NCBI GenBank assembly: GCA_038106525.1
Contig: JAYOEC010000001.1
Span: forward strand, 24,876 to 88,875
From: Minisyncoccota bacterium
Lineage (GTDB): Bacteria > Patescibacteriota > Minisyncoccia > Phycocordibacterales > Phycocordibacteraceae
Length of the DNA: 64,000 nt
Direction: 5' to 3'
Below, piece after piece: positions 7,286 through 63,893 of the stretch (the first letter of the stretch is position 1; each line of letters begins with the position of its first letter). Position numbers and translations under genes: made by a program. The notes beneath the pieces are model-generated. The model saw only the letters and a list, made by a program, of their open reading frames with translations. It searched no databases and was not told the origin of the DNA.

Positions 7286-8698
7286 ATGCAAAGAGTCCAC
7301 TGCATCGGAATTGCAGGCATGGGTATGAGCGCTATTGCTGTACTGCTCAAAGAGGCCGGATACCATGTTACCGGATCGGACGAGGGTCTGTACCCGCCTG
7401 CGAGCGAGTACCTGCGCGAATCCGGGATTACTGTATTTGAAGGATACACGCCGCAGCATATCCCCGATGATACTGACTGGTTCATCATCGGCAGAAATGC
7501 GAAACTTGATCCAAGTACCAATGCCGAGGTGCGCGCCGCACTCGAGAGCGGGAAGCCGGTGCGGACCTTCCCCGAAGTGCTCGGTGAGCTTGGAAAAAAA
7601 TCACGCGTGCTCGTGGTCGCAGGGAGCTACGGAAAATCAACCAGTACCACACTCATCGCATGGTGCCTAGCCAGCGCAGGAAAAGATCCTTCGTATTTCA
7701 TAGGAGCTTTCCCGTTCGACCTCCCAAGAACCGCACGGCTCGGATCTGGAAATTTTTTCGTCATGGAGGGCGACGAGTACCCAACCTCCCATCAGGACCC
7801 GCGGTCAAAATTTTTGCACCTCGGCGCGCACGATGTACTGCTCACTGGAGCAGTACACGACCATGTAAATGTCTTTCCGACCGCGGACGACTACGAACGC
7901 GCATTTGTACCACTCATTGCAGGTCTGCCTGAGCAGGGGGTTATCGTCGCTGCGCGCGGAGAGGAAACGGAGCGGATACTTGCGCATGCCGGAAGGTCAG
8001 CAGTTATGTACGGGATTGGCGCATCTTCCGCTGGCTATGCTGCCACAGATATCCGCTTTGCTGAGCGAAGCTCCTTTGTTCTCAGAAAAGATGGCGCTGC
8101 TCTCGGAACACTTGAGACGGTCCTCCTCGGATCGCATAATATTGAAAACATCGTCGGAGCGGCGGCGATGCTGCTTGAGACTGGCGCACTGAGTTTTGAC
8201 GAAATAAGCACCGCAGTCGCCACATGCACCGGCGTCCGCCGCCGCCTTGATCTTTTGACTCCTGATTCGTCCGTACGCACCTATGAGGGGTTCGGTTCAT
8301 CGTATGAAAAAGCACGCGCCGCGATCAAAGCAATGAGGCTGCACTTCCCTGAGCGACGATTGGTAATTATATTTGAACCGCACACCTTCAGTTGGAGGAA
8401 TCGTAACTCCATACACTGGTACGATACGGTCTTTGCAGAAGCGAGCCGCGTGCTGGTATACGAACCCGCGAGACAAGGAAGCGAGACGCACGCGCAGCTG
8501 AATCAGGCAGAGATTGTTAATCGACTTCATCTTGCCGGAGTTCGTGCAGAGGCGTTGGATGAAGCTGCAGGAAATGCGCATATCCTTCAAAGCCTCGAAC
8601 CAGGAGATGTCGCGCTTATCTTAAGCTCCGGTAACTTAGGAGGGATTCTTGACACACTCCCAGCTGCCATCACTGCAGCATTTCCAAAATCCGCATGA
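7286..8698 (+). CDS. mpl: UDP-N-acetylmuramate:L-alanyl-gamma-D-glutamyl-meso-diaminopimelate ligase (Mpl-type Mur ligase)
   Basis: True start MQRVHCIGIAGMGMSAIAVLLKEAGYHVTGSD at 7286; the track's 5' extension overlaps rsmI on the opposite strand. Mpl-specific blocks: YPPASEYLRESGI, FFVMEGDEYPTSHQDPRSKF (vs E. coli Mpl FFVIEADEYDCAFFDKRSKF), GSHNIENIVGAAAM, VRRRLDLL, IFEPHTFSW, ILSSGNLGGI. Confidence 0.8.
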   Translation: MQRVHCIGIAGMGMSAIAVLLKEAGYHVTGSDEGLYPPASEYLRESGITVFEGYTPQHIPDDTDWFIIGRNAKLDPSTNAEVRAALESGKPVRTFPEVLGELGKKSRVLVVAGSYGKSTSTTLIAWCLASAGKDPSYFIGAFPFDLPRTARLGSGNFFVMEGDEYPTSHQDPRSKFLHLGAHDVLLTGAVHDHVNVFPTADDYERAFVPLIAGLPEQGVIVAARGEETERILAHAGRSAVMYGIGASSAGYAATDIRFAERSSFVLRKDGAALGTLETVLLGSHNIENIVGAAAMLLETGALSFDEISTAVATCTGVRRRLDLLTPDSSVRTYEGFGSSYEKARAAIKAMRLHFPERRLVIIFEPHTFSWRNRNSIHWYDTVFAEASRVLVYEPARQGSETHAQLNQAEIVNRLHLAGVRAEALDEAAGNAHILQSLEPGDVALILSSGNLGGILDTLPAAITAAFPKSA

Positions 8699-9366
8699 AA
8701 GTAATCCGCGAGGAATTCGGAGAGGACTATGGTAACTACCGCTTTGGATACTGCGTGTGGTGCCACCTGGAGCAGGATGATGAGCTTCGAGATATCTATG
8801 CAGGCGGATTTCTCCCATACTCAAAAAACCCAGAAGAGAAGAACACATTTTATATGGCACGGAGTGCTCGCGTCACGCTTAGCCAATTTGAGCCGTCGAG
8901 CGAAAATAGGAGGATTGCAAAAAGGTTCGATGGACAGGCCAGGCGCGAACTGCTTACTCCGGCAGAAGCAAAGACGGACCCGGAGTGCATCCCGATGGTG
9001 CTTGAGTACTTTTCAAAAAAACACGGCGCTATTGTCATGCCGGAAAATCGGCTTATCGGAATACTTGACACACCGCTCCCACTCAGAGTCGTACGGTATG
9101 TGGGCGACGCAGTGCTTGGGTATACATTTGAAATCGTAGCGGAGGGGGTGATGCACTTTTGGTATTCAGCGTACGATATGCGGTACGCGCAAAAATCTCT
9201 AGGCGCATGGCTTATGCTTGACTCAATTCGAAATGCAAAATCAGAGGGCAGAGCGCACGCGTATCTTGGCACCGTCTACGGCGAAAAGGGAAAATACAAA
9301 ATGAACTTTCAGCCGCTCGAATACTGGAACGGCACTGAATGGATTGGTGGGCGCGAGAGGACTTGA
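8695..9366 (+). CDS. ATE/Bpt-family aminoacyl-tRNA--protein transferase (arginyl/leucyl-tRNA protein transferase-like)
   Basis: N-terminal Cys motif FGYCVWC (ATE_N-like CGYC). C-terminal block HFWYSAYDMRYAQKSLGAWLMLDSIRNAKSEGRAHAYLGTVYGEKGKYKMNFQPLEYWNGTEW aligns with the Bpt/ATE_C pattern YSFYDP..SLG..L..I..AK..G...YLGY...C.KM.YK.NF.P.E...G.W. Start ATG overlaps the mpl stop (ATGA). Confidence 0.6.
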   Translation: MKVIREEFGEDYGNYRFGYCVWCHLEQDDELRDIYAGGFLPYSKNPEEKNTFYMARSARVTLSQFEPSSENRRIAKRFDGQARRELLTPAEAKTDPECIPMVLEYFSKKHGAIVMPENRLIGILDTPLPLRVVRYVGDAVLGYTFEIVAEGVMHFWYSAYDMRYAQKSLGAWLMLDSIRNAKSEGRAHAYLGTVYGEKGKYKMNFQPLEYWNGTEWIGGRERT

Positions 9367-9430
9367 ACCTCCACCCCCTTGCGGGGACTACGACCTGAAC
9401 GTAGCGTGTCTGCCATTTCACCACGCGCCC
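9345..9430 (-). tRNA. tRNA-Leu(CAG), long variable arm, CCA encoded
   Basis: Reverse complement: GGGCGCGTGGTGAAATGGCAGACACGCTACGTTCAGGTCGTAGTCCCCGCAAGGGGGTGGAGGTTCAAGTCCTCTCGCGCCCACCA. 7-bp acceptor, anticodon loop TTCAGGT (CAG), T-loop GGTTCAAGTCC. Its 3' end overlaps the last ~20 nt of the convergent Bpt-like CDS. Confidence 0.8.
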
Positions 9431-9470
9431 ATGTGGCTTAGTGCCTAGGATACTATAACAAAAAACCGAG

Positions 9471-9543
9471 TGCGCACTCTAGGATTCGAACCTAGGACCG
9501 CTCGAGTATCAGTCGAGTGCTCTACCAACTGAGCTAAGTGCGC
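9471..9543 (-). tRNA. tRNA-Ile(GAT), CCA not encoded
   Basis: Reverse complement: GCGCACTTAGCTCAGTTGGTAGAGCACTCGACTGATACTCGAGCGGTCCTAGGTTCGAATCCTAGAGTGCGCA. Anticodon loop CTGATAC (GAT). Immediately downstream of the 16S 3' end, as in rrn spacers. Confidence 0.8.
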
Positions 9544-9756
9544 ATGCTCATCCTATATACCAAAAAAAGCATTGCCCGTCGAGCGCCAAAACGCGACGAG
9601 CATCCAGATCCAAAGAGCTTTTCTTTCTTCTGCCCCGATCCACCCCCGTTTCGTGTATCGGGGTACCGAGCGCCAGTTTAGAGTTGTGCGCCAATACTCT
9701 GTGTCGTTAGACAATCGACCGGTAAGTCATCCCAAATTGTGGGACGACCTTTCCGT

Positions 9757-11215
<1,459 letters not shown>

Positions 11216-21204: not shown

Positions 21205-21320
21205 CTCTGTTCTGGCGACTAGCTACTCTCCCCTTGCGAGTACCATCGCTACTACCGCGCTTAACTGCCAAGTTCGGAATGGGATTGGGTGTGACCACGG
21301 CGTCGAATCACCAGAACAGA
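21205..21320 (-). rRNA. rrf: 5S ribosomal RNA (compact, ~105-115 nt)
   Basis: Reverse complement CTGGTGATTCGACGCCGTGGTCACACCCAATCCCATTCCGAACTTGGCAGTTAAGCGCGGTAGTAGCGATGGTACTCGCAAGGGGAGAGTAGCTAGTCGCCAG. Flanked by 16-nt inverted repeats (21190-21205 and 21312-21327), a likely processing stem. Confidence 0.8.
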
Positions 21321-21401
21321 GCACTCGGCTCTGCGTACACTGACTCTTGCATCACAGCAACAACACCGAGCGGTACAATTGACTCGCTCATGGCGTTCAT
21401 A

Positions 21402-24398
<2,997 letters not shown>

Positions 24399-44641: not shown

Positions 44642-46477
44642 TTACGGTACCACAGTACCCTGCTGCGATGAAACTCCGGTGCCAGTAGTAAGCGAGCCCG
44701 AAGATCGCTCGACTGTGGCTCGAATAAAGCGATCAAATGCTGACACGCGCTGATCAACGACAAGAGAGGGCATACTGTTTACCTGCGAGAGCGAGGGTAC
44801 TGCACCGATAGCAAAAGCTGCTGTCCGCTGTTCGCCTGGCGCAAGATCGCCAATCTCCCATGATATTGATCTGCCGTTCTCATGGTATGAAACCGCCCCT
44901 GACACTGCAGACTTCCACTCAACATAGTTCGGCAAAAGCGCAGTAACCACAGTATCAGCAACCGCGTTTGATGAGTTCGTGACCGTCCAAGAAACAATGT
45001 AGAGTGTCTCTTGCTCAACCTTTGGGGGTTGCGGACCGGAGCTGCGGGCAAGTGTTGCCGAAAGCGCAAGGTCAGTCGATACGAGCGCGACTGCCTTTGC
45101 GCTCGAGCCTACTTCTTCCTGTACATTGCCCTCGGCAGTTCTCTTCCCGCGGACTGTAGCAGCGAGCGTGATCTGTGGACTGCGGAACGACCCCGCATTC
45201 TGCGGGAGTGCCGCAAACTCGAAAGTTGCAAATTGAGACTCGCCAGGAGAAACATCTTCGAGCCTGCGATCAGTCTCCGGTGAAAAGATAATAGTGGTAT
45301 CTGAAGAACGATAGAAACCCTGTTCGGACTTAACTGAACTTTTGTCGAGAACCGCGCCGTTCAATCGCAGCTGTATCTCGACATCCTGAATGCGAGTCGG
45401 AAGATTGTTAGTCCACCGAATCTCTCCTCGAACCGGAACTCCCCGCTGTATGTTTTTTTCTGGTGCAGAATCGCCATTGAGCGATAGCTGTACCGATACG
45501 AACGGCTTTGCAACGAGCAACGAGATATCGGTCGCCGCAAGCGGTGCCTGGATGGTATCGGTGCCTTGCTTTTGAGAACCCGTAGTAAAGTGGACTACCC
45601 GATCCGAACCATCCTCGCCAACAAACGAACCGCGGATCACAATCTCCCGCTCTCCCGAAGGGAGTACGGTACCAAGATCCCACACATTGGAACCGGCACG
45701 AGGAGCTGGCGAAGAAGAGATAAAAGTAAACCCTGGGGGATAGGTGGCAACAAGCAGCATCCCCAGAAGCGGTTCAGTGGCATTTGAAGCGACCCGAACG
45801 CGGATCTCTGCGGGCTCTCCAGACACTACCTCGGACAGTGAGACAACACTAATTGATGCTGGAGACTGACTGATGGTTGTATGATACTCGCCCTCGCTAC
45901 GAAATACTGCATTCGAAGATGGCACCCGGTATTCTGCCGAAACAGCAACAGTAAGTTCTGTTCCTCGCTCGCCAAACAAGACTGCCTGAACGGTGCGCGT
46001 CACCGTTTCTCCGGGCTGGATAGTGCCGAGTGACTCGCGGATGCGCGGCAAGTCGAGCGACACATCAGCAGCAGACCGGGTTCCCGTCGGGTATTCAACC
46101 AAAAGGTCGGTGAGGTTCATCGGTGCAGGATTGTTATTGGTAATGAGAATTTGAAGCGACACCTCGTCTCCGGCACGAACCGCCGTTGGTCCCTGGATAT
46201 CGATCCTGACATTCTTCGTCGAAACTGTAGTGTCACCGGAGAAAATAATGAGACCGGCAACCGTCGCCGCAACGATAAAAAAGACGACTGACCCCGCAAA
46301 GAGATATTCGAGTACGGAAAATCTTCCAAGAAGCGACGGCGCGCGCGGTGGTGGCACCCGCCCCCACGCAGCAGGTGCCGGTGGGGGTGTGGTGCCGAGC
46401 GGTCGCCGTTGGAGCGGCTCTGAGCCAGGGCGCATTTCGACACGGGCGCTGAGCCGATCCAGCGATTCTTGATCCAT
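44642..46477 (-). CDS. Membrane-anchored hypothetical protein with extracytoplasmic beta-rich repeat domains
   Basis: Cytoplasmic Pro-rich N-terminus, single TM (FAGSVVFFIVAATVAGLIIF), then ~500 aa of repeated Ig-like/DUF11-like segments. No catalytic motif seen. Confidence 0.55.
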   Translation of the reverse strand: MDQESLDRLSARVEMRPGSEPLQRRPLGTTPPPAPAAWGRVPPPRAPSLLGRFSVLEYLFAGSVVFFIVAATVAGLIIFSGDTTVSTKNVRIDIQGPTAVRAGDEVSLQILITNNNPAPMNLTDLLVEYPTGTRSAADVSLDLPRIRESLGTIQPGETVTRTVQAVLFGERGTELTVAVSAEYRVPSSNAVFRSEGEYHTTISQSPASISVVSLSEVVSGEPAEIRVRVASNATEPLLGMLLVATYPPGFTFISSSPAPRAGSNVWDLGTVLPSGEREIVIRGSFVGEDGSDRVVHFTTGSQKQGTDTIQAPLAATDISLLVAKPFVSVQLSLNGDSAPEKNIQRGVPVRGEIRWTNNLPTRIQDVEIQLRLNGAVLDKSSVKSEQGFYRSSDTTIIFSPETDRRLEDVSPGESQFATFEFAALPQNAGSFRSPQITLAATVRGKRTAEGNVQEEVGSSAKAVALVSTDLALSATLARSSGPQPPKVEQETLYIVSWTVTNSSNAVADTVVTALLPNYVEWKSAVSGAVSYHENGRSISWEIGDLAPGEQRTAAFAIGAVPSLSQVNSMPSLVVDQRVSAFDRFIRATVERSSGSLTTGTGVSSQQGTVVP

Positions 46478-46495: not shown

Positions 46496-47080
46496 CTACA
46501 GGCCGGAGGCGCTCATACCGCGGTGTATGTGGCGGACTAACGCTCCGGTGCGCGCACCGGCGCGCATCAAAAGTGCGGCAGTAAGCGGAGAAGCGATGAA
46601 GTCGTGCTCGTCGTCGGATGGCGCAACATATCCAAGTGCCGCAAGGGTCCGTAGCACAACAAGGTATTCAAGCGTACGGATATCTTTGGCCGAAACATCG
46701 TGAAGGGCACCACAGTACTCCCAGAGCCGCCCAAAGAGCTCGTCATTCTTGCCTTCCCCACGGACAAATTGTCGTACAAACGAAATAACTCTGGCGAACG
46801 ATTTCTGAACTTCCTCCTGTTGCACTGCAAAATACTCGTTTACCGTCCGCACAGCGCCCGTAACGCGCCACTGATCTCTTCCTCGAACCAGCGAGTAGGT
46901 GCCGCGCGTCCCCGGTACCAGATGTGCCCGGAGCTTTGAGCGTTCCTCGCGAGCAGAAGTGGCGAGTGCAGTTACCAACCCCAACTCTTCGGTAAAGAGC
47001 ATAATCCTGAGCGATCCCTCGCCCGCCTGACGGCGGCTCAGTACAAGTCCGCGTGTATGCACCTCACGCTTTGTGAACAT
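46496..47080 (-). CDS. recO: DNA repair protein RecO (short form lacking Zn finger)
   Basis: MFTKREVHTRGLVLSRRQAGEGSLRIMLFTEELGLVTALATSAREERSKLRAHLVPGTRGTYSLV... N-terminal OB-fold pattern of RecO. Start chosen to avoid overlap with ileS. Confidence 0.6.
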   Translation of the reverse strand: MFTKREVHTRGLVLSRRQAGEGSLRIMLFTEELGLVTALATSAREERSKLRAHLVPGTRGTYSLVRGRDQWRVTGAVRTVNEYFAVQQEEVQKSFARVISFVRQFVRGEGKNDELFGRLWEYCGALHDVSAKDIRTLEYLVVLRTLAALGYVAPSDDEHDFIASPLTAALLMRAGARTGALVRHIHRGMSASGL

Positions 47081-50000
47081 TGAAATCTCCTTCACGAACT
47101 TCACTGATTGATGCTGCCCTCTCTAGACTCTCGAAGTGCTGCTGAGCAAATACCAACCGCTCGGCCGGAACGGACAGCACCGCACGGTCTTTTGGATTAA
47201 GCCCTGCAATTTTCCGCGCCTCCTGCACTTCACGAATAAGCTCGCGCACTTCTCCCTCCTCCCTAAGCGCATCGGTCAAGGTGGTATCAAGTTCAACCAT
47301 TTCGGGTATTCCCTCTTGCACCACCACCTCCTTTACATTCAATTCATCGCGGATCAGGTCGAGCAGGTCGTTTTTATTCGCAAGTGACGGCGCATTAATT
47401 TTGAGCCTAGAGAGCGGCTGACGAACCTTGATGCCCTCTTTCTGTCTTGCCTCGAGCGCCAAGGACACCAACTCGCGCACCTTTTGCATATCTAATACAA
47501 GTTCAGATGAGTTAAGGCGCAAAAGACTCTTCCAATCGAATATCTTGCGAGCAACAGTCGGCCAGGCTGCAAGGTGCACGGATACCGGATCCTGTTCATC
47601 TCGAACGCCGCGGTACACAGCCTCAGCAAGAAACGGAGCAAACGGTGCTAAGAGGCGTGCTGAAACATGCAATGTCTTTCGCAGCGTCTGTAGTGCAGCG
47701 CGGTCGCCGTCCCGAACCCGATCACGGATGCGGCGCACATACCATTGCGAAATATCTTCGAAAAGGGCTGCAAGCGCTCGTGTCGCTGCGGTGAGATTAT
47801 ATGCGTCGAGCGCCGAGGTCACCTCAACTATAACTTGTTCCGTCCGTCGCTGCATCCACTGATCGATACTCATCACACGCATATCAGGCCCGCCTTCGTT
47901 CTTAAAAATCTCATAAAACTTTGCGCTGTTATCAAACCAACCAAGAGCTCGAGCCGCCTCACGGACGGTCTTTTCGTCAAAATTCTTTGGATCCCCGGCA
48001 TCATTGACACTAAACATCCAAAATCTCAGTGCATCCGCTCCCCACTGTTCAATAGCATCCCAAGGGTTTACCACATTGCCGCGACTCTTCGACATTTTTT
48101 TTCCTTCCGCATCAAGCAGATGACCCAGTGATACTACATGGTTATATGGAGCCCCCTTTCCCATGAGAACACCGACCGCAAGAAGTGTATAAAACCACCC
48201 GCGTGTCTGATCAATTGCTTCAGCAATGTAGTCCGCAGGATATGGTGACTCGGTGCCGAATGGCATTCCTCCAGAATCAAACCACACATCGACCACATCC
48301 GGAACGCGATGGAGTTCTTTGCCTGTCGGGGACTCGAGCACCACTGAATCGATAAATGGGCGGTGTAGGTCAAGCTCGTAATCAGCATTGTGCGGCAACC
48401 GAACAAACTGGAACTCGCGCACCTCGCCAGTGGTGTAGTATTCCTCGCGATCCTTCATGGCGACCGTCCCAGCAACATCAGCCCCTCTGGCAATTGCCTC
48501 GGCTAACCAAACGGCGTACTCGTGCGTCACGATCAAAATAGTCTCTCCATGATGTTTCTCCTCAAGTTCGTAGAGGAACGCGCCAATCCGGCGTCGCATG
48601 TCCATCAAATTTTCTCCGCCAGGGGGCGTCTTGTAAAACCGTTCTTGGTACGAAGAAAAGAAATGATGGTACGCCTCGACCGACTTTCCATCAAATTCTC
48701 CCGTATCTATTTCTTGAATTCGATCATCAAATCGTATTTCTGATTTCGGAAATCCGCATGCGTCGGCAACGATCTCTGCAGTCTCTCTGGTACGGATGAA
48801 TGGGGAGGCATAGATCGCATCAAATCTCTTCCATTTCAGAGTCTGTGCGGACTTTGCAACCTGTGCCCTGCCGGAGTCTGTCAGATGATTTTCGTCACCC
48901 GCATGAGAACTGACCACGGACCCAACATTGCTCATTGCCTGCCCATGCCGCATCAAAAAGTAAGTGTTGCCGCTCTTTTTACTATAGCGTTTCAGCTCAT
49001 CAACGGAACCGATGACCATGTGCTCACCCTCTCCTTCCCACACCGGGAGTGGTGTTGCCCAGTATCGTTCGCGAGAAATTGCCCAGTCCTTTATGCCTCG
49101 CAGCCACTCGCCCATGCGCCCATCACGCAAGTGTGCGGGAACCCAAGCAACCGTCGCATTCTCCCGCTGCAGAGTATCAGCCAATTCGGACATACGGATG
49201 TACCAAGAATCGCGCGCATAGTAGATGAGTGCAGTTTTACATCTCCAGCAAAATGGGTAGGAATGTGCATGCTTCCCTTTTGAGAACAAGTGTCCGCGGT
49301 GCGCGAGGTCCTTAATGATGTCGACCGCAACACCCTCATCCCGTACAAATCTGCCAGCCAAAAATCCGACCCCATCCATAAAACGCCCGGACGGCTCGAC
49401 CACATGTACACGGGGTAAATCGTTTTTTTGACCAAGCAAAAAATCATCCGCCCCATACATGACCGCGGTATGCACCACTCCCGTGCCATCTTCAGTAGTT
49501 ACAAAATCAGCCTCGTACACCTTAAAGGCACTCGCAAACCGCTCGCGCTCACTTTCAGGAGCCAAATCCCGTGCAAATGGGTACAGAGGTTCATATGTCT
49601 GACCAACGAGCTGCTCGCCGGACAAGGATTCAGCTCCTTCCGCAGAAAGGCCGAGGGACGATGCCCGATCTTTAGCAACAATCAGGGTTTCTCCATCATT
49701 GCGGACCTTTAGGTACTGAATGCCACCACCAACCGCGAGAGCAACATTCCCTGGTAATGTCCATGGAGTGGTGGTCCACGCGAGAATAAAGGTCGGCTGC
49801 TGCTCGCCGACCTGTTCCGGAGTGCGAAGGCGAAACTTTGCAACAACCGCAAGGTCGCTTACTTCCTCATACCCTTGTGCAACCTCATGTGATGAAAGAG
49901 CGGTGCCACATCGAGGACACCATGGAACCACCTTGTAATCCTTATACAACCGCCGATCTCGGTGCACCTTGGCAAGAATGCCCCAGAGCCGTTCCATGTA

Positions 50001-50468
50001 TGTTGGAGTGTAAGTGTAGTATGCATCCGCCTGATCAACCCAATACCCAATGCGTTCAGTAAAACGCCACCACTCGTCTATGTACCGTAAGACACTCTCC
50101 CGGCACTTCTGATTAAAGGCTGCGACACCGTACGCCTCAATCTCCGGCTTTCCTGAAAATCCTAGCTGCTTCTCAACCTCGAGCTCCACCGGAAGTCCGT
50201 GCGTATCCCACCCTGCACGGCGCTTCACACGATACCCCTGCATTGTCTTATACCGAGGAATTGCATCCTTAAACGCTCGCGCTTCGAGGTGGTGCAAGCC
50301 AGGTTTACCATTTGCTGTAGGCGGCCCCTCATAAAATACAAACTCGCCCTTCGGGGCTGGCTTCTCCAACGACCGTTCAAAAATCTTGTGTTCTTTCCAA
50401 AATGCAAGCACCTCCTCCTCGCGGAGTGCGGCATCCGACTTTTGACGCTGCTGCGCATCGTCGTGCAT
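47064..50468 (-). CDS. ileS: Isoleucyl-tRNA synthetase carrying an internal histidine-phosphatase (PGAM-like) domain insertion
   Basis: YEGPPTANGKPGLHHLEARAFKDAIPRYKTMQG (HIGH region), WCPRCGTALSSHEVAQGY, CP1 editing domain TTPWTLPGNVALAV, DVWFDSG, KMSKSRGNVV. Between WATPLPVW (aa ~471) and DVWFDSG (aa ~727) sits ~190 aa with LMRHGQAMSN and ILIVTHEYAVWL. Confidence 0.9.
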   Translation of the reverse strand: MHDDAQQRQKSDAALREEEVLAFWKEHKIFERSLEKPAPKGEFVFYEGPPTANGKPGLHHLEARAFKDAIPRYKTMQGYRVKRRAGWDTHGLPVELEVEKQLGFSGKPEIEAYGVAAFNQKCRESVLRYIDEWWRFTERIGYWVDQADAYYTYTPTYMERLWGILAKVHRDRRLYKDYKVVPWCPRCGTALSSHEVAQGYEEVSDLAVVAKFRLRTPEQVGEQQPTFILAWTTTPWTLPGNVALAVGGGIQYLKVRNDGETLIVAKDRASSLGLSAEGAESLSGEQLVGQTYEPLYPFARDLAPESERERFASAFKVYEADFVTTEDGTGVVHTAVMYGADDFLLGQKNDLPRVHVVEPSGRFMDGVGFLAGRFVRDEGVAVDIIKDLAHRGHLFSKGKHAHSYPFCWRCKTALIYYARDSWYIRMSELADTLQRENATVAWVPAHLRDGRMGEWLRGIKDWAISRERYWATPLPVWEGEGEHMVIGSVDELKRYSKKSGNTYFLMRHGQAMSNVGSVVSSHAGDENHLTDSGRAQVAKSAQTLKWKRFDAIYASPFIRTRETAEIVADACGFPKSEIRFDDRIQEIDTGEFDGKSVEAYHHFFSSYQERFYKTPPGGENLMDMRRRIGAFLYELEEKHHGETILIVTHEYAVWLAEAIARGADVAGTVAMKDREEYYTTGEVREFQFVRLPHNADYELDLHRPFIDSVVLESPTGKELHRVPDVVDVWFDSGGMPFGTESPYPADYIAEAIDQTRGWFYTLLAVGVLMGKGAPYNHVVSLGHLLDAEGKKMSKSRGNVVNPWDAIEQWGADALRFWMFSVNDAGDPKNFDEKTVREAARALGWFDNSAKFYEIFKNEGGPDMRVMSIDQWMQRRTEQVIVEVTSALDAYNLTAATRALAALFEDISQWYVRRIRDRVRDGDRAALQTLRKTLHVSARLLAPFAPFLAEAVYRGVRDEQDPVSVHLAAWPTVARKIFDWKSLLRLNSSELVLDMQKVRELVSLALEARQKEGIKVRQPLSRLKINAPSLANKNDLLDLIRDELNVKEVVVQEGIPEMVELDTTLTDALREEGEVRELIREVQEARKIAGLNPKDRAVLSVPAERLVFAQQHFESLERAASISEVREGDFNVHKA

Positions 50469-50494: not shown

Positions 50495-51862
50495 TCAAGG
50501 CGCAGCGGTCTTTGAATGGGACACGAGTAGGTACGCTCCAGCACCAGCAGTACCCAAAAGCCCAGCCATAAAAACGAAAACCCAATACGGGAGCGGCCTC
50601 CTTGGTGAGGCAGTTGTTGTTGCCTCAACAATGTCGCGAGAACCATCCGATGACCCGGCTGACGCACCAAGCACCAACCCACTCGCGGCCGCCATCGATT
50701 GTTGCTCTTGTTCTGCTCTCGGGATGCTTTTAGCTGAGAGCATGAGCTGCGCCGTATAGGTCACTGCGGGCATGCCATTTGGGTACTGAAGCAGTACTGT
50801 GCTCGGAACACTTGGGCGCACCCCTGTTACCGCACCGGCAAATGCAACAAGGGTCTGAGGGCGCACTATGGTGCGTGGAGGAAAGACGAATCGTGATCCG
50901 TCCGCACTCAAAATCCATCCACCAAGGTCAACCTCGTGAGAGGAGTGGTTCTTAATTTCTACCAGTTCTGGAGACACCGTACCGAACGAAAGATCCGCGG
51001 GCACCGCTGCAACCAGCACTCTGTCGGCAGCACTATATGCACCACTTGCAGCATCAGCAACCACCGTGTAACTCCCTGGATAGAGAAAAGTGTGCGCTAC
51101 CGATTGTCCTTCGGCGCTTGTTCCATCACCAAAACTCCACACCACGCGAGCACTCTCAATCCGCTCGCCGGCGAGGCCATAGACTACCGAGGAGAATATG
51201 AGCGGAGCCCCAACAATCGCGGTCCGATCATCGCCAGCTGTGATGCGGATCTTCGGGTCGACAGGAAACGAGCTGGTGCTTGGACTGCTCGACGCCGAAA
51301 CAGACGATGGTGTTGATGTCTCAGGAACCTCCGTTTCCTCTGAAGCAGCACCGGGCCCGCCACCGGGTGTTGGTTGAAGTGCTACCCAGCTTGAGCCGTT
51401 TTTCTGAAGTGATGTGCCGTCTCCTGCTCCGCCCATCCCTGGTGTATAGGTCACCGAGTCGATATCTGCTCCGGCGTTGTCACGCACAGCAATGCTTTCG
51501 CCATTCGTATTATTAAGCCCGCTGGTAAACGCAACATCGAAAAGAGTCCCTGAAAATCCAGGATAATCAGCAAGAAATGTAGTCGGGTCGTCTGCAATGA
51601 CTACATATGTTCCGGATGGAATAGTCTCGGCACCCGCAACAAGATTGAGTGAGTGATTAACGCCTCCCTCAAAAAGCTTCCAGTCGGAAAGAACTATCGG
51701 CTCGCCCGAATTCATAACCTCTATCCACTCGTGTTTCGTATCGGTACCGCTTGGATCATACATAATCTCCGAAATAAAAACTGCCGCAGAGGCGGCAGTG
51801 GGAGCTACAAAAACGGTCAGGAAGACGAGGAGCGGGATCGAGGCCCGATACATGCCTACCAC
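50495..51862 (-). CDS. Surface protein with two lamin-tail domains, signal peptide and C-terminal TM anchor
   Basis: Signal MVGMYRASIPLLVFLTVFVAPTAASAAVFISEIMYDPSGTDTKHEWIEVMNSGEPIVLSDWKLFEGG (LTD1). Second LTD VSPELVEIKNHSSHEVDLGGWILSADGSRFVFPPRTIVRPQTLVAFAG. C-terminal PYWVFVFMAGLLGTAGAGAYLLV. Confidence 0.7.
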   Translation of the reverse strand: MVGMYRASIPLLVFLTVFVAPTAASAAVFISEIMYDPSGTDTKHEWIEVMNSGEPIVLSDWKLFEGGVNHSLNLVAGAETIPSGTYVVIADDPTTFLADYPGFSGTLFDVAFTSGLNNTNGESIAVRDNAGADIDSVTYTPGMGGAGDGTSLQKNGSSWVALQPTPGGGPGAASEETEVPETSTPSSVSASSSPSTSSFPVDPKIRITAGDDRTAIVGAPLIFSSVVYGLAGERIESARVVWSFGDGTSAEGQSVAHTFLYPGSYTVVADAASGAYSAADRVLVAAVPADLSFGTVSPELVEIKNHSSHEVDLGGWILSADGSRFVFPPRTIVRPQTLVAFAGAVTGVRPSVPSTVLLQYPNGMPAVTYTAQLMLSAKSIPRAEQEQQSMAAASGLVLGASAGSSDGSRDIVEATTTASPRRPLPYWVFVFMAGLLGTAGAGAYLLVSHSKTAAP

Positions 51863-60102: not shown

Positions 60103-61284
60103 TCAAGTGTGACCGCCATGGCTATGCCCATGATGGGCCTGTGGTAAGCCATTTTTTGCAACAAGAACGCCGAACCATGTCGCGAGCGGGAGTACCGCTG
60201 CAAGCGCAACCCCGCCCACTGCCGCACGCAAAATCTCCACCGCAAGCACCTCGCTATTGATGAGGTAGAGCGGGTCGGATGGCGAGAGCGAAAAAAGTAG
60301 CATGAGCGGCAACGCTGACCCAACATATGCGAGAACGAGAGTGTTTACCACCGCGCCAAGATGCTCTCTTCCGACCCGCATTGCCCGTCGGTACAAGTCT
60401 CGCGCCGAGAGTGCTGCACTTGCAGCGCGGAGCTCTTGAACCGTGAGCACCTGCGTTACCGCAAGGTCATCAATAATACCCAAAATGCCGATGATGAAAG
60501 CACCCAACAGCAGCCCTTCCATATTCAGGGTGCCGCCAGTACTTAAGTTAAGTATGGTTGAAGTATCGTCAGTAAACCCAGAGAGGCGCGCCAAAGATAC
60601 AGACGCGCTGCCAAGAAATATCGCGCCAATGATGGTTACGACGCTGGCGCCAAATGCAGCGGCAGTGTGGCGATTTGCGCCGTGGGTCACCAGCATTGCA
60701 AGACCAAGGATTACCGCCGCACTGGTTGTTGCGGTGAGGACCGGTGACGCACCATGTGCAAGTTGAGGCAGCAGCACAAATACGATTACAACGATCGAGA
60801 TCCCGAGCGAAATAAGCGCGCGCACCCCTATCCATCCGCCGACCAAGATAGTCGAAAATGCAAACAGCAGCACCGCAATAAGGAGAACTGAACGGCGGTC
60901 AGCCTCACGCACCGTGTACAGTGGCCCGTCGGACCCTTCCTGCCAGGAGACAAAAAACGAATCGCCTTCGGCAAGCGGCACGCGGTCGTTTGTGATGAAG
61001 GCGCGCTCACCCTCATCGGTAATTGCCTCGAGAGTCTGTACGCGGGTGGTTGCCCCGGCCCCCGGGATCTCCACCACTTCGTCGCTGAGAACCCGCTCAA
61101 CCGTCGCTCGAATAATGCCCGAATCTATTGGGGCACCATCTACCGCCGCACTCGCCCAACTGGTTGACGATGCGAAACAGAAAAGCAAGAACGACACTGC
61201 CCAAAAAATTCGAGCTGGTGTTCGGACAGGTTCGCAAAACCGGACTGCTGCTGTGCCTGCTTGACTATCAAACCTGGTATACAT
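60103..61284 (-). CDS. YibE/F-family membrane protein
   Basis: N-terminal TM, extracytoplasmic domain, then multi-TM core ...LISLGISIVVIVFVLLPQLAHGASPVLTATTSAAVILG...GLLLGAFIIGILGIIDDLAVTQV. The first ATG overlaps the Fur-family CDS by ~145 nt. Confidence 0.7.
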   Translation of the reverse strand: MYTRFDSQAGTAAVRFCEPVRTPARIFWAVSFLLFCFASSTSWASAAVDGAPIDSGIIRATVERVLSDEVVEIPGAGATTRVQTLEAITDEGERAFITNDRVPLAEGDSFFVSWQEGSDGPLYTVREADRRSVLLIAVLLFAFSTILVGGWIGVRALISLGISIVVIVFVLLPQLAHGASPVLTATTSAAVILGLAMLVTHGANRHTAAAFGASVVTIIGAIFLGSASVSLARLSGFTDDTSTILNLSTGGTLNMEGLLLGAFIIGILGIIDDLAVTQVLTVQELRAASAALSARDLYRRAMRVGREHLGAVVNTLVLAYVGSALPLMLLFSLSPSDPLYLINSEVLAVEILRAAVGGVALAAVLPLATWFGVLVAKNGLPQAHHGHSHGGHT

Positions 61285-61553
61285 ACTGAGACATCCTCAA
61301 TGGTACCGCACTTCGTACAAACTACATGGTGATGGTGGCTTTTGCCACAAACTGACTCATACTGAAAAGCGCGCCTCCCAAGATCAATGCGTCGAACCTC
61401 GCCAGATGCAGTCATTTGTCCAAGAGCGCGGTACACGGTTGAAATATGAACCGACTGCCCAGCGCGATGCGCAATAGCAGAAGCAGAAAGTGGCACGGAG
61501 GCGCGCTCCAACACTGCCTTGATGCGTGCCCGATCTTTTGTTCTTCGATGCAT
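61140..61553 (-). CDS. Fur-family metal-responsive transcriptional regulator (Zur/Fur-like)
   Basis: wHTH LSASAIAHRAGQSVHISTVYRALGQMTASGEVRRI; metal sites HHHHVVCTKCG ... CRSCF (two CxxC pairs); 137 aa. Confidence 0.85.
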   Translation of the reverse strand: MHRRTKDRARIKAVLERASVPLSASAIAHRAGQSVHISTVYRALGQMTASGEVRRIDLGRRAFQYESVCGKSHHHHVVCTKCGTIEDVSVCIPGLIVKQAQQQSGFANLSEHQLEFFGQCRSCFSVSHRQPVGRVRR

Positions 61554-61582
61554 CTTCCTTACTCAAACACCCACACGGTAGT

Positions 61583-61610
61583 TTGACAAGCTTCGGCGCT
61601 CCCCTATACT
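61583..61610 (+). promoter_or_regulatory. Sigma-70-like promoter for the CooC-like/hypothetical/ZIP operon
   Basis: TTGACA (61583-61588) - 16 nt - TATACT (61605-61610), ~33 nt upstream of the ATG at 61643. Confidence 0.45.
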
Positions 61611-61617
61611 AATACTA

Positions 61618-61634
61618 TTGCGAATTAGTCGCAA
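61618..61634. promoter_or_regulatory. Palindromic candidate operator TTGCGA-ATTAG-TCGCAA between the -10 and the start codon
   Basis: Perfect 6-bp inverted repeat with 5-bp spacer overlapping the predicted transcription start. Adjacent divergent Fur-family gene suggests a metalloregulator operator. Confidence 0.35.
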
Positions 61635-61642
61635 CAAGATAT

Positions 61643-62473
61643 ATGATTATCGGATTCTTGGGTAAGGGCGGTAGCGGCAAGACGACTAGTGCGACACAAA
61701 CAGCACAGCGAGCGGCAGCGAGGGGGATGTCTGTGCTCGCAATTGACGCGGATCACAACATGGACCTGGCATTCAATCTTGGCTGTCAAGAGCCGTTCCC
61801 CTATTTCGGCGCGTCGATTGCAGAGCTTCGTAAGTGCTGTGGTCTTGCCCCAGGACAAAACTATCGCGACGCACTCGCAAAAGATTCTTCTCACTCATTC
61901 AGCATCACGCCGCCTGACCAGTACATTAAAAAGTATAGTCAAATTGTTCGTTCGAATATTAGGCTGATGGTTGCCGGCCCACACACAGATGAAATACTTT
62001 TTGATCAGAGCTGCAGCCACTCTCTAACGACGCCGCTCAAGGTATTGCTTCCCCTCTTCTCACTAAAAGAGAATGAAATTGTTATAGTTGACGAAAAAGC
62101 TGGATTAGACGGAGCCGGTACTGGGATACCTTCCGGATTTACCGCTGCAATAATTGTTTCTGAACCGACTGATCACAGCATCAAGGCTGCCTTGGGGATT
62201 AAGAAGCTTCTCGACTTTTTCGGAACGCCATATCGGTTCCTTCTTACAAAGGTCCGCTCCGAGGAGGAAGAAAAGAGAGGCAAGGAGGCGTTTCAGCATG
62301 ACCTGATTGGCAGTATCCCGGCAAACAACGAACCTCTTCGAGAGACGAGTGCGGCATACGATTCAATTATTGCGTTTGGGGGCGAGATAGTTCGATCTGG
62401 CGATGCCAGGCTCGAACGGTCTCGGTCTAAGGTCGAGCGAAATCGAGCCTTCCAAACGACACTTACACACTAA
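61643..62473 (+). CDS. MinD/ParA-superfamily P-loop ATPase, CooC-like (metal-insertion accessory ATPase type)
   Basis: Deviant Walker A MIIGFLGKGGSGKTTSATQTAQRAAARGMSVLAIDADHNMDLAFNLG closely parallels CooC (GKGGVGKST...AIDADPDANLA). Cys pair KCCG. Confidence 0.7.
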   Translation: MIIGFLGKGGSGKTTSATQTAQRAAARGMSVLAIDADHNMDLAFNLGCQEPFPYFGASIAELRKCCGLAPGQNYRDALAKDSSHSFSITPPDQYIKKYSQIVRSNIRLMVAGPHTDEILFDQSCSHSLTTPLKVLLPLFSLKENEIVIVDEKAGLDGAGTGIPSGFTAAIIVSEPTDHSIKAALGIKKLLDFFGTPYRFLLTKVRSEEEEKRGKEAFQHDLIGSIPANNEPLRETSAAYDSIIAFGGEIVRSGDARLERSRSKVERNRAFQTTLTH

Positions 62474-62486
62474 CTAACACCTTGAT

Positions 62487-63104
62487 ATGTCAATGGGTTC
62501 CCGTTCAATTGTATATGCCCCGATTACTAGAGGCGGCTTTGAATACATACTCAGCCAATACCCCAATGTTCCGAGGGAGCAAGCGGAGGTACTGTATTCA
62601 ATACTCACCGATCGGCTAACGACCGAGACGCTCCTCTTTGCTGCACTGATCGACCTCATCGATCGCTACCGGAAGAACGGAAGTGCTTCGTTCAAACTTT
62701 CAGCAATTCGCAAAGACAAAAAAGGTAAAGTGCAGACCTACGCGATGGAGCTACTTCATGATGTCATCGTTGAACTTCAAATGGCAGGAAGGGCTATGAA
62801 AAAAATTCAGACGGAACTTGGAAAAAACGGAACCATGCTCGCCTTTATGCACTCATGCGAGTCAGCGATTGTTGATACCCAACAAGTAGATTCGTGGCTT
62901 GAATCAAAGTCAGAAGAAGAGGCATTGAGAACCAGGCTTGACTGGGAGGGGACTTTTGAAAAGGGAGTCCCGGAAGCATACGCGCTTGAATACGCCGAGT
63001 ACTCCGAGGCCGATGCTGCGGATGCAGACCGATGCTATCGTATCGCACTTCATGCCGTCGAGCTTACAGGCCTTACAGCACACGAGCTCACGCCTCAGCG
63101 GTAG
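62487..63104 (+). CDS. Hypothetical protein co-transcribed with the CooC-like ATPase
   Basis: 205 aa, no recognisable motif, acidic C-terminal segment EYAEYSEADAADAD. 13-nt gap from the upstream gene and 15-nt gap to the ZIP gene. Confidence 0.5.
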   Translation: MSMGSRSIVYAPITRGGFEYILSQYPNVPREQAEVLYSILTDRLTTETLLFAALIDLIDRYRKNGSASFKLSAIRKDKKGKVQTYAMELLHDVIVELQMAGRAMKKIQTELGKNGTMLAFMHSCESAIVDTQQVDSWLESKSEEEALRTRLDWEGTFEKGVPEAYALEYAEYSEADAADADRCYRIALHAVELTGLTAHELTPQR

Positions 63105-63119
63105 TGTGATCATTGCCGG

Positions 63120-63893
63120 ATGGAATACTGGACAATGCCGCTGCTCGCAGTTTTTGCAGTATCGCTCGTGTCGCTGGTCGGCATCGCGGCCTTTTCGCTC
63201 CGCGAGGCGTGGCTCCGAAGCATGATTCCCGTGCTGGTCGGGCTTGCTGTGGGCGCGCTTCTTGGTGACGCATTCATCCACCTCATCCCCGAGTCGCTGG
63301 AGTATATCGGAGACGAGCTTGCGTTCGGAGTGACAGTACTCGCAGGTATCGGAACATTCTTTGTTCTTGAAAAGTACCTGCGCTGGCATCATGCGCACCA
63401 TGCACATGAGATTGAGCATGAGGGTCACACCTGTGAGAACCACGCACCTCGGCACCTTGCACCTCTCGTGCTAGTCTCGGACGCAGTCCATAATCTGGTA
63501 GATGGCGCGGTGATCGCTGGTGCGTTTCTCGTTTCTCCATCGCTTGGAATTGCAACCACCGTAGCGGTATTTCTTCATGAGATCCCGCAAGAAATCGCCG
63601 ATTATGGGCTCCTGCTCCACGCAGGCATGGGGCGCGGACGGGCGTTATTTTATAATTTTCTTTCGGGACTCACTGCCCTCGTTGGTGCACTGTTCGTTCT
63701 TGCGGCAGGAAGCGAGTTTCCTCAGCTTGGAGGATACGCGGCCGCATTCACTGCCGGAGCGTTCATATACATTGCGGCGGCGGACTTAGTTCCTGAACTT
63801 CAAAGGGCCCGCGGAGGAAAGGCTGCGCTCGCGCAGTCAGCAGCGATACTTTTCGGCGTTCTCAGCATGGTTCTACTGGCGCTGTCTGAATAG
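63120..63893 (+). CDS. zupT: ZIP-family divalent metal (Zn) transporter, ZupT-like
   Basis: 8 TM; His-rich loop HHAHHAHEIEHEGHTCENH; conserved TM4-5 LHEIPQEIADYGLLLHAGMG. Confidence 0.8.
   Translation: MEYWTMPLLAVFAVSLVSLVGIAAFSLREAWLRSMIPVLVGLAVGALLGDAFIHLIPESLEYIGDELAFGVTVLAGIGTFFVLEKYLRWHHAHHAHEIEHEGHTCENHAPRHLAPLVLVSDAVHNLVDGAVIAGAFLVSPSLGIATTVAVFLHEIPQEIADYGLLLHAGMGRGRALFYNFLSGLTALVGALFVLAAGSEFPQLGGYAAAFTAGAFIYIAAADLVPELQRARGGKAALAQSAAILFGVLSMVLLALSE

Follow-up and report, generated by a model that had tools for sequence, protein, structure and literature searches.

A CooC-like ATPase and its small partner protein in a predicted Fur-family metal regulon of Patescibacteria

Gene organization of the locus

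The sequence analysed here is a stretch of 64,000 nucleotides (hereafter the window) from a Minisyncoccota bacterium (GenBank assembly GCA_038106525.1, contig JAYOEC010000001.1, positions 24,876 to 88,875 of the forward strand), the nearest relatives of which are genomes of Patescibacteria (candidate phyla radiation, CPR). Near its end lies a group of genes coding for a Fur-family metalloregulator, a P-loop ATPase resembling CooC, a small protein designated X, a ZIP-family metal importer and a membrane protein of the YibE/F family (Table 1). An earlier note on this DNA had described fur as divergent from a three-gene operon (ATPase, X, ZIP) preceded by a promoter and a palindrome, and had proposed a module for acquisition and delivery of zinc or nickel. 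The positions of its open reading frames (ORFs), intergenic gaps, promoter and palindrome were all reproduced, and the four genes stand as it placed them; the unit has five members, however, the YibE/F gene having been overlooked. The two divergent units are separated by an intergenic region of 89 nt. According to the ORF list, the gap between the ATPase gene and X is 13 nt and that between X and the ZIP gene 15 nt.

Table 1. Genes and regulatory features of the locus (positions are those of the window)
Feature	Position	Strand	Evidence
YibE/F-family membrane protein	60103..61284	-	Pfam YibE_F 8.3e-57, 192.9 bits vs cut-off 27.2
Fur-family metalloregulator, Zur-like, 137 aa	61140..61553	-	Pfam FUR 2.8e-17
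Sigma-70-type promoter of the ATPase-X-ZIP operon	61583..61610	+	Consensus scan
Weak candidate fur-yibEF promoter	61606..61634	-	Scan, 8/12 matches
Operator, 7-1-7 Fur-family box TGCGAATtAGTCGCA	61619..61633	.	Conserved across related loci
CooC-like MinD-class P-loop ATPase, 276 aa	61643..62473	+	Pfam CbiA 1.1e-9
Protein X, 205 aa	62487..63104	+	ORF; conserved family
ZIP-family (ZupT-like) divalent-metal importer, 257 aa	63120..63893	+	Pfam Zip 4.5e-39

Conservation of the module among Patescibacteria

At E ≤ 1e-5 the ATPase family has 898 clusters, and the 120 best of these are all below 1e-59; wherever the source names an organism, it belongs to a Patescibacteria lineage. A scan restricted to one genome per species gave 289 relatives of the ATPase. 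The best 80 loci of these 289 were used: ORFs were called and iterative hidden Markov model (HMM) searches were carried out with the five window proteins. The counts given below refer to 84 loci containing the ATPase, with a window of 3 kb for partner genes; individual loci are designated L001, L003 and so on.

A Fur-family gene was found near the ATPase in 51 of the 84 loci and X in 42, in 30 of them downstream on the same strand; the corresponding numbers for YibE/F and ZIP are 30 and 17. When only the 54 loci with at least 3 kb of sequence on both sides are considered, the figures are 36 (Fur), 23 (X), 23 (YibE/F) and 15 (ZIP). Gaps between the ATPase gene and any downstream partner are mostly shorter than 110 nt. 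The order of the genes varies: L001 has YibE/F - ATPase - X - ZIP - Fur on one strand, and L003 has YibE/F, Fur (divergent), ATPase and X. Homologues of X thus co-occur with CooC-like ATPases beside Fur-family or ZIP genes in other genomes (L001 and others), as the earlier note had anticipated. Its expectation that the trio ATPase-X-ZIP would be conserved holds for the ATPase-X pairing, which recurs, but less so for ZIP. The conserved core of the module is the ATPase, a small Cys/His partner, a Fur-family gene and the box described in the next section.

The operator and the promoters

The promoter of the ATPase-X-ZIP operon consists of TTGACA (61583-61588) and TATACT (61605-61610) separated by 16 nt and matches the consensus at 11 of 12 positions, in agreement with the earlier note. 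A perfect inverted repeat, TTGCGA-N5-TCGCAA, is found at 61618-61634 and is the sole exact copy in the 64-kb window. With one mismatch allowed, there are two sites in the window versus 0.34 expected, and 4 of 100 shuffled sequences reach two. Judged from the window alone, the palindrome exceeds chance only slightly, and it is conservation in orthologous promoters that makes it significant. A near-palindrome with one mismatch to this pattern, TCGCGACGCACTCGCAA, occurs at 61864-61880 within the ATPase coding region, where it also scores as a minus-strand terminator-like hairpin; given the frequency of two sites in shuffled sequences, it is probably there by chance.

Two related loci were informative about the operator unit. 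The intergenic region of L003 contains two inverted copies of TGCGAATTATTTGCA, one on either side of a TTGACA...TATAGT promoter, and in L001 TGCAAATTAATTGCA lies 29 nt ahead of the ATPase gene. Because of these boxes, the core of the window repeat is read as a 15-bp box of the 7-1-7 type found with Fur-family regulators, TGCRAATnATTYGCA, and the 6-5-6 palindrome favoured at first was abandoned as the operator unit. An initial box consensus, TGCGAATnATTCGCA, proved too narrow; that of the clade is TGCAAATnATTTGCA. The box is the only such site in the window. It begins 8 nt past the -10 hexamer and covers the predicted start of transcription, and 9 nt separate its end from the ATG of the ATPase gene.

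The distribution of the box was analysed over the related loci and the window (85 sequences, 1.13 Mb). With at most one mismatch, TGCRAATnATTYGCA was found at 51 sites, as compared with 0.6 in shuffled sequence; the palindrome is therefore kept in orthologous promoters, L001 and L003 included. Allowing up to two mismatches gave 100 sites, of which 83 are intergenic; the genes directly downstream are the ATPase gene (41 sites), fur (27), ZIP (10) and X (8). These counts are lower bounds, since lineage variants such as TGCAATAnTATTGCA (L024) escape the scans. The central base is unconstrained (A14, C15, G13, T16), as expected for a Fur-family 7-1-7 box.

On the other side of the intergenic region, a minus-strand candidate promoter that could serve fur-yibEF, TTGCGA and TAGTAT with a 17-nt spacer, scores below the threshold of the standard scan; if this promoter is real, which we infer from its hexamers only, its -35 hexamer sits within the operator. 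The fur gene would then be autoregulated from the shared intergenic region, as in Zur and Fur systems. In Bacillus subtilis, the 7-1-7 boxes are TGATAATnATTATCA for Fur, TCGTAATnATTACGA for Zur and TTATAATnATTATAA for PerR. The box described here resembles Zur/Fur-family boxes in its 15-bp architecture, its AAT-n-ATT core and its overlap with a promoter; unlike the known Zur, Fur and PerR boxes, it has its own specificity positions (TGCA/TGCG arms). The arrangement put forward in the earlier note, a Fur-family gene divergent from an operon controlled by a promoter and a palindrome, is supported at the sequence level, and both the regulation and the conservation of the module are well supported computationally.

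The CooC-like ATPase

When the ATPase was compared with all PDB sequences using phmmer, the best match was CooC1 (3kje; 8e-10), the nickel insertase of Carboxydothermus hydrogenoformans, which is also the sole match spanning most of the length of the protein (residues 3-230). Matches to MinD, ParA, ArsA and Get3 are restricted to its first ~50 residues. The AlphaFold2 model of the ATPase (pLDDT 93.5) likewise has 3kje as its top Foldseek match (3.3e-12; TM 0.63/0.68), followed by MinD/ParA proteins at least two orders of magnitude weaker. Pfam assigns the ATPase to CbiA, and neither the ATPase nor X matches cobW or CobW_C. The nearest characterised relative is CooC, and not ParA/MinD or the G3E GTPases, as had been proposed.

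The deviant Walker A motif typical of the CooC fold (G7-K8-GGSGK13-T14) is invariant in the family alignments, and so are D35-A-D-H-N-M-D41, G-P-(H/Q)-T and DEKAG (D150-E-K). The Cys pair C112-x-C114 of CooC1, its intersubunit metal site, aligns with C124-S-H126 of the window protein. The Cys-Ser-His motif is invariant in the family alignments and is present in 82 of the 84 loci, the two exceptions being fragments. The ATPase thus shares with CooC1 a MinD-class fold, the signature Lys of the deviant Walker A motif and a two-residue metal motif at the same alignment position, yet it differs in several respects: (i) the invariant Cys-Ser-His replaces Cys-x-Cys, (ii) the DADHNMD and GPHT motifs are additional, and so is a basic C-terminal helical hairpin (with conserved R256, R259 and K263) that is not in CooC1, (iii) the partner protein is different and (iv) the genes are under a Fur-family box beside zinc-type genes. 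In line with the earlier note, no gene for carbon monoxide dehydrogenase/acetyl-CoA synthase (CODH/ACS) or for hydrogenase turned up in a scan of ten large window ORFs or among the neighbours that recur in the 84 loci; these neighbours are Fur, X, YibE/F, ZIP and COG0523 genes. The protein would work like a CooC, yet it lacks two features that define CooC, the CxC motif and the CODH context. Automated annotation labels several members of the family 'CO dehydrogenase maturation factor', and hundreds of entries bearing this name are probably misnamed. By analogy with CooC1, two CxH motifs meeting at a nucleotide-dependent dimer interface would form a Cys2His2 site.

The same comparisons bear on another reading, mentioned in the earlier note as one that would undo its own: that of a ParA/MinD-type positioning ATPase which, together with a ParB- or MinE-like X, merely lies near metal genes. 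ParA and MinD do share the deviant Walker A motif and come next in the Foldseek search, there are X subfamilies with conserved N-terminal peptides, and a ParB-like gene occurs 2-4 kb from the ATPase gene in six loci (L057, L062, L067, L068 and two more). The NCBIfam matches to ParA, MinD and RepA models, however, cover only residues ~2-50, with scores of 16-30 bits for ParA/MinD versus cut-offs of about 150-508, and CooC is the only solved protein matched in sequence over most of the length. X has no similarity to ParB or MinE and no helix-turn-helix, and no other gene follows the metalloregulator box directly as often as the ATPase gene does. The ParB-like gene never adjoins the ATPase gene, has no box and is judged to reflect lineage-specific synteny. 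A positioning system is thus extremely improbable here, and the ATPase is treated below as a CooC relative.

Protein X and its substitutes

Protein X has no significant match in Pfam or NCBIfam, no sequence relative in the PDB and no fold similarity to solved proteins. It is soluble and of the alpha/beta type, with a compact fold predicted confidently. The earlier note rightly described it as a protein of unknown function; the acidic stretch that it took for a terminal tail lies near the C-terminus, at residues ~166-181. A word-indexed search found six homologues of X, and 61 clusters were obtained when 1.84 billion representative proteins were searched with a profile; the profile matches all consist of a single domain, are about 100-440 aa long (mostly ~200-260) and are not fused to any known domain. 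Among 43 members, the only strongly conserved side chains are H91 (42 of 43), C124 (43 of 43) and the residue at position 122, for which every member has His or Cys. The resulting variants at 122-124 are HSC, CSC, CCC, HCC and CSCC, the window protein having H122-S-C124. G115 is conserved as well, and D92 and E96 are conserved in close relatives. In the predicted structure, H91 is located on helix 85-98 and residues 122-124 form part of a beta-hairpin turn. Interchange of His and Cys at position 122 would be the behaviour of a metal ligand. In addition, 29 of the 43 members start with Met-Cys, often as MCxxC; the subclade of the window protein starts with MS(x)G.

The pairing of the ATPase with this conserved protein, noticed first in the window, is found in half of the loci (42 of 84). 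In others the slot is filled by small proteins designated X2 (8 loci; HGCGCGKC), X3 (8 loci; VHD...NVCCNGC) and X4 (5 loci; FYNCCGG); when these are included, a small Cys/His partner stands beside the ATPase in 63 of the 84 loci. Comparison of X2, X3 and X4 with X by hhalign gave weak matches (E 1e-4 to 4e-3), always across the region of the helix-plus-hairpin motif, which is suggestive of homology.

X may be likened, by analogy only, to CooT and CooJ, the partners of CooC, and to ArsD, the partner of ArsA: all are small, with metal binding predicted for X, and encoded beside a MinD-class ATPase with a metal site, in the present case a predicted one, at its interface. The Met-Cys start of many X proteins recalls CooT, in which Cys2 is a nickel ligand. 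Unlike CooT, CooJ and ArsD, X is related to no solved protein in sequence or fold, and the window protein has no N-terminal Cys. Instead of being such a partner, X could be the client, i.e. a small metalloprotein with a role in zinc sparing, storage or buffering, and the ATPase its dedicated maturase. CooC-type maturases are usually encoded beside their client, as in the CODH operons of a 'CooC-like' study (PMC13056359), and both the compact, confidently predicted fold of X with its single conserved His/Cys cluster and the occurrence of X2, X3 and X4 at the same position in other lineages would agree with this. On the other hand, X evolves fast, with ~3 conserved residues in 43 members, and is replaced by proteins of 130-157 aa; this is easier to reconcile with an adaptor or a metal-binding partner than with an enzyme, and no similarity to a catalytic fold was found in X. 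We consider the client role very doubtful and treat X in what follows as a probable metal-binding partner of the ATPase.

The membrane proteins

The YibE/F protein of the window ends in a His-rich sequence, AHHGHSHGGHT, and 29 of 31 homologues have at least three His among their last 25 residues. Its possible starts are ATG 61284, GTG 61197 and TTG 61188. The longest ORF overlaps the 3' end of fur by 145 nt (61140-61284) in a different frame, whereas with the two later starts only 58 or 49 nt would be shared. The fur and yibEF ORFs of related loci either meet without a gap or share up to ~140 nt, most commonly 20-60 nt. Where the YibE/F gene is near the ATPase, it usually directly follows fur; the two genes are predicted to be co-transcribed in many loci, and YibE/F belongs to the module. 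No relevant literature was found for this family (PF07907).

The ZIP protein scores 135 bits with Pfam Zip (cut-off 35.1) and carries the His-rich loop HHAHHAHEIEHEGH. Its match to the NCBIfam ZupT model (2.3e-16) reaches 59.9 bits versus an equivalog cut-off of 252: membership of the His-rich, ZupT-like ZIP importers stands as proposed, but orthology with ZupT is not demonstrated.

The presence of transporters in the module suggests another role for the ATPase. In the manner of ArsA and ArsD, it could dock on YibE/F or ZIP and drive directional transport, X feeding it with metal or receiving metal from it. ArsA shares the ATPase superclass and appears among the weak N-terminal matches, the ATPase gene often adjoins YibE/F or ZIP, the YibE/F tails are rich in His, and the basic C-terminal hairpin is a feature that CooC1 does not have. 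Nevertheless, only 30 of the 84 loci have YibE/F near the ATPase and only 17 have ZIP there, YibE/F is tied to fur more than to the ATPase, and many loci have the ATPase and X with no transporter nearby. Moreover, ArsA exports its substrate, whereas the regulon looks like a response to limitation, with uptake. An ArsA-like pump is accordingly quite unlikely, and a cytosolic role for the ATPase and X is preferred.

The regulator, the content of the regulon and the metal

The regulator has a Fur-family fold with a structural Cys4 zinc site: its pairs C78xxC81 and C120xxC123 are kept in 47-54 of 54 clade regulators. These pairs and a His run (H72-H75) are shared with Zur and Fur repressors, and E66 and C69 are candidate sensing ligands. 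The best PDB relatives are Zur of Mycobacterium tuberculosis (2o03; 2.4e-13) and then Zur of Streptomyces coelicolor (3mwm), with Fur, Nur and PerR structures close behind. C69 and the His run align with C76, the sensing Cys of M. tuberculosis Zur, and with its HHHHH; the Asp position is unaligned. The protein is below every NCBIfam equivalog cut-off, and its sensing-site residues match neither Zur nor Fur cleanly. An attempt to assign the metal from the regulator was given up, the NCBIfam matches (PerR/Fur), the PDB matches (Zur) and the mixed sensing residues of the clade pointing in different directions. The sequence of the regulator does not decide the metal, the assignment of which rests on the content of the regulon.

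In this respect, the box was found upstream of zinc-acquisition genes, as expected for Zur: ZIP genes (10 sites) and COG0523 genes (5 loci) and, in a variant form, between znuACB and the ATPase operon (L024). The COG0523 GTPases behind boxes (cobW + CobW_C) are in L023, L044, L066, L082 and L026; at several of these loci, the COG0523 gene is the first of an operon running into the ATPase gene. COG0523 genes behind Zur sites are the classical signature of a zinc-limitation regulon (reviewed in PMC2770081). In L024 (5211-7969), znuA-znuC-znuB are divergent from ATPase-X-fur, and two variant boxes TGCAATATTATTGCA (7888-7902 and 7955-7969) lie between the two operons. Clustering by BLAST had suggested ZnuC-like ATP-binding cassette (ABC) proteins in 8 loci; Pfam shows these to be mostly ABC-2 exporters, ZnuA/ABC-3 being confined to L024. 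No nickel enzyme (CODH, hydrogenase or urease) and no iron-specific gene (feoB, ferritin or siderophore system) recurs near the module in the 84 loci or among the ten large window ORFs. Because COG0523 and znuACB stand behind boxes and nickel or iron genes do not recur, we infer that zinc is the best-supported metal. Thus the proposal of a metal module finds support in a metal-acquisition context; as to the choice between zinc and nickel, the evidence is indirect, and the regulon content favours zinc.

Three further boxes are found in L026 (2486-7061), ahead of a nicotianamine-synthase-like gene, a 452-aa COG0523 paralogue and an ArsP_1-type permease, which suggests a metallophore-type branch of the regulon.

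The COG0523 genes also bear on the relationship between the two classes of nucleotide-hydrolysing proteins. Like COG0523 proteins (YciC, ZigA, YeiR, ZNG1), the ATPase belongs to a nucleoside triphosphate-hydrolysing class, has a Cys/His motif, and is encoded behind a Zur-type operator along with zinc importers (PMC2770081); unlike them, it is of the MinD/CooC type rather than a G3E GTPase, with neither a cobW nor a CobW_C match. The earlier note had supposed that the ATPase and X stand in for COG0523, of which there is none in the window. As a general rule this is ruled out by co-occurrence: COG0523 adjoins the ATPase in 9 of the 84 loci, at least 5 of them with a shared operator. The ATPase and COG0523 may act in parallel or in series. 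Our searches of the searchable literature (CooC with Zur, YibE/F, Patescibacteria Zur) returned no description of the module, in agreement with the earlier note, to which the pairing appeared undescribed.

Genes for DsbA-like and DsbB-like proteins occur within 3 kb of the ATPase in 12 and 7 loci, respectively (L040, L053, L055, L057, L067, L068 and others); in L057, a Dsb-like gene comes directly after ATPase-ZIP and has the same orientation. In L012 (1925-2446), an operator box is followed by the gene for a MauE-like membrane protein. These observations hint that extracytoplasmic disulfide formation is connected with the regulon.

Proposed function of the module

On balance, and with moderate confidence, we read the locus as a local copy of a metal-limitation regulon found throughout Patescibacteria, the metal probably being zinc, with a metal-handling pair made of the CooC-like ATPase and X. 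Several points weigh against this reading. X may not be a chaperone but a client, and the intersubunit metal site of the ATPase is an extrapolation from CooC1. The others concern the metal. All characterised CooC proteins handle nickel, to our knowledge as insertases, and CooC is the closest relative of the ATPase. Most clade regulators (n = 54) keep a Y-E...HHHH arrangement of the Fur/Nur type and are without the Zur-type Cys of the window protein, and the best (sub-threshold) NCBIfam matches of the latter are PerR and Fur models. Neither the ZIP and ZnuA families nor COG0523 proteins are strictly confined to zinc, the two transporter families being able to carry iron or manganese, and the ZnuA of L024 has no His-rich loop. 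X proteins are rich in Cys (CSCC, CCC, MCxxC), which would suit an Fe-S cluster or nickel. The same architecture could therefore serve another metal, with a sensor of iron, nickel, cobalt or manganese and an ATPase/X pair that inserts nickel, like CooC with CooT/CooJ, or carries an Fe-S cluster on a Cys2His2 bridge, in the way that Mrp/NBP35-type ATPases use their CxxC motif. This we regard as unlikely given the absence of recurrent nickel enzymes and iron-specific genes near the module, and since COG0523 and a nicotianamine-synthase-like gene behind the box are typical of Zur regulons (PMC2770081), CxH would give a Cys2His2 site, classical for zinc, and the regulator is closest, among solved structures, to Zur proteins.

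If the metal is zinc, the module might function as follows. The Zur-like repressor would bind the 7-1-7 box over the start of the ATPase-X-ZIP operon and over the candidate -35 hexamer of fur-yibEF; when the metal is scarce, it would leave the box and both divergent units would be transcribed. ZIP would import the metal, and YibE/F with its His-rich tail is probably also a transporter. The ATPase would dimerise on ATP through the Lys of its deviant Walker A motif, as CooC, MinD and NifH-type proteins do, and the two Cys124-x-His126 motifs of the dimer would come together in a Cys2His2 site between the subunits that would suit Zn(II). The metal-binding partner would be X, which has the conserved His and the [His/Cys]-x-Cys motif, and metal would pass from X to the ATPase or in the opposite direction; ATP hydrolysis would drive release of the metal to client proteins. 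Both proteins would act in the cytosol in an ATP-dependent manner, analogous to CooC with CooT/CooJ. We also suggest, more tentatively, that the pair of a CooC/MinD-type ATPase dimer and a novel-fold X could represent a second class of zinc metallochaperone, which would be the main allocator of zinc in Patescibacteria under starvation, beside COG0523 and possibly coupled to YibE/F.

We know of no nucleotide-dependent players in Zur regulons other than the COG0523 GTPases. Here, a Zur-like operator precedes the gene for an ATPase of a class known until now only for inserting nickel into CODH; its ligands are switched from CxC to CxH, as would be expected if the metal had changed, and its partner has a fold unlike any solved one. 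The ATPase class, the ligand set, the novel-fold partner and the YibE/F family would all be new in a Fur-controlled metallochaperone module. With 289 species-level genome matches and >890 protein clusters, the module is widespread among Patescibacteria, organisms with very small genomes that rely on hosts for their nutrients, and would provide a defined regulon and operator for this barely studied phylum. It would also offer a first functional handle on the YibE/F family, and as a compact two-protein system the ATPase and X should be easy to assay in vitro.

Other features of the window

The rRNA genes of the window are unlinked and lie on the minus strand, at 9345-11214 and 21210-24396. The 16S gene (9756-11214) is followed by tRNA-Ile and tRNA-Leu genes, and the 23S (21406-24396) and 5S (21210-21315) genes are ~10 kb away from it, with protein-coding ORFs between. 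The ORF at 47064-50468 (minus strand) codes for a class-I aminoacyl-tRNA synthetase of 1134 aa (tRNA-synt_1 + Anticodon_1) with an unusual insertion: its catalytic domain is interrupted midway, at residues 504-664, by a histidine-phosphatase domain (His_Phos_1, 1.9e-32). Two large predicted surface-type proteins are encoded between aminoacyl-tRNA synthetase genes, at 50495-51862 and 44642-46477 (both minus strand); one of the pair has Lamin-tail and PKD domains and the other DUF11 repeats.

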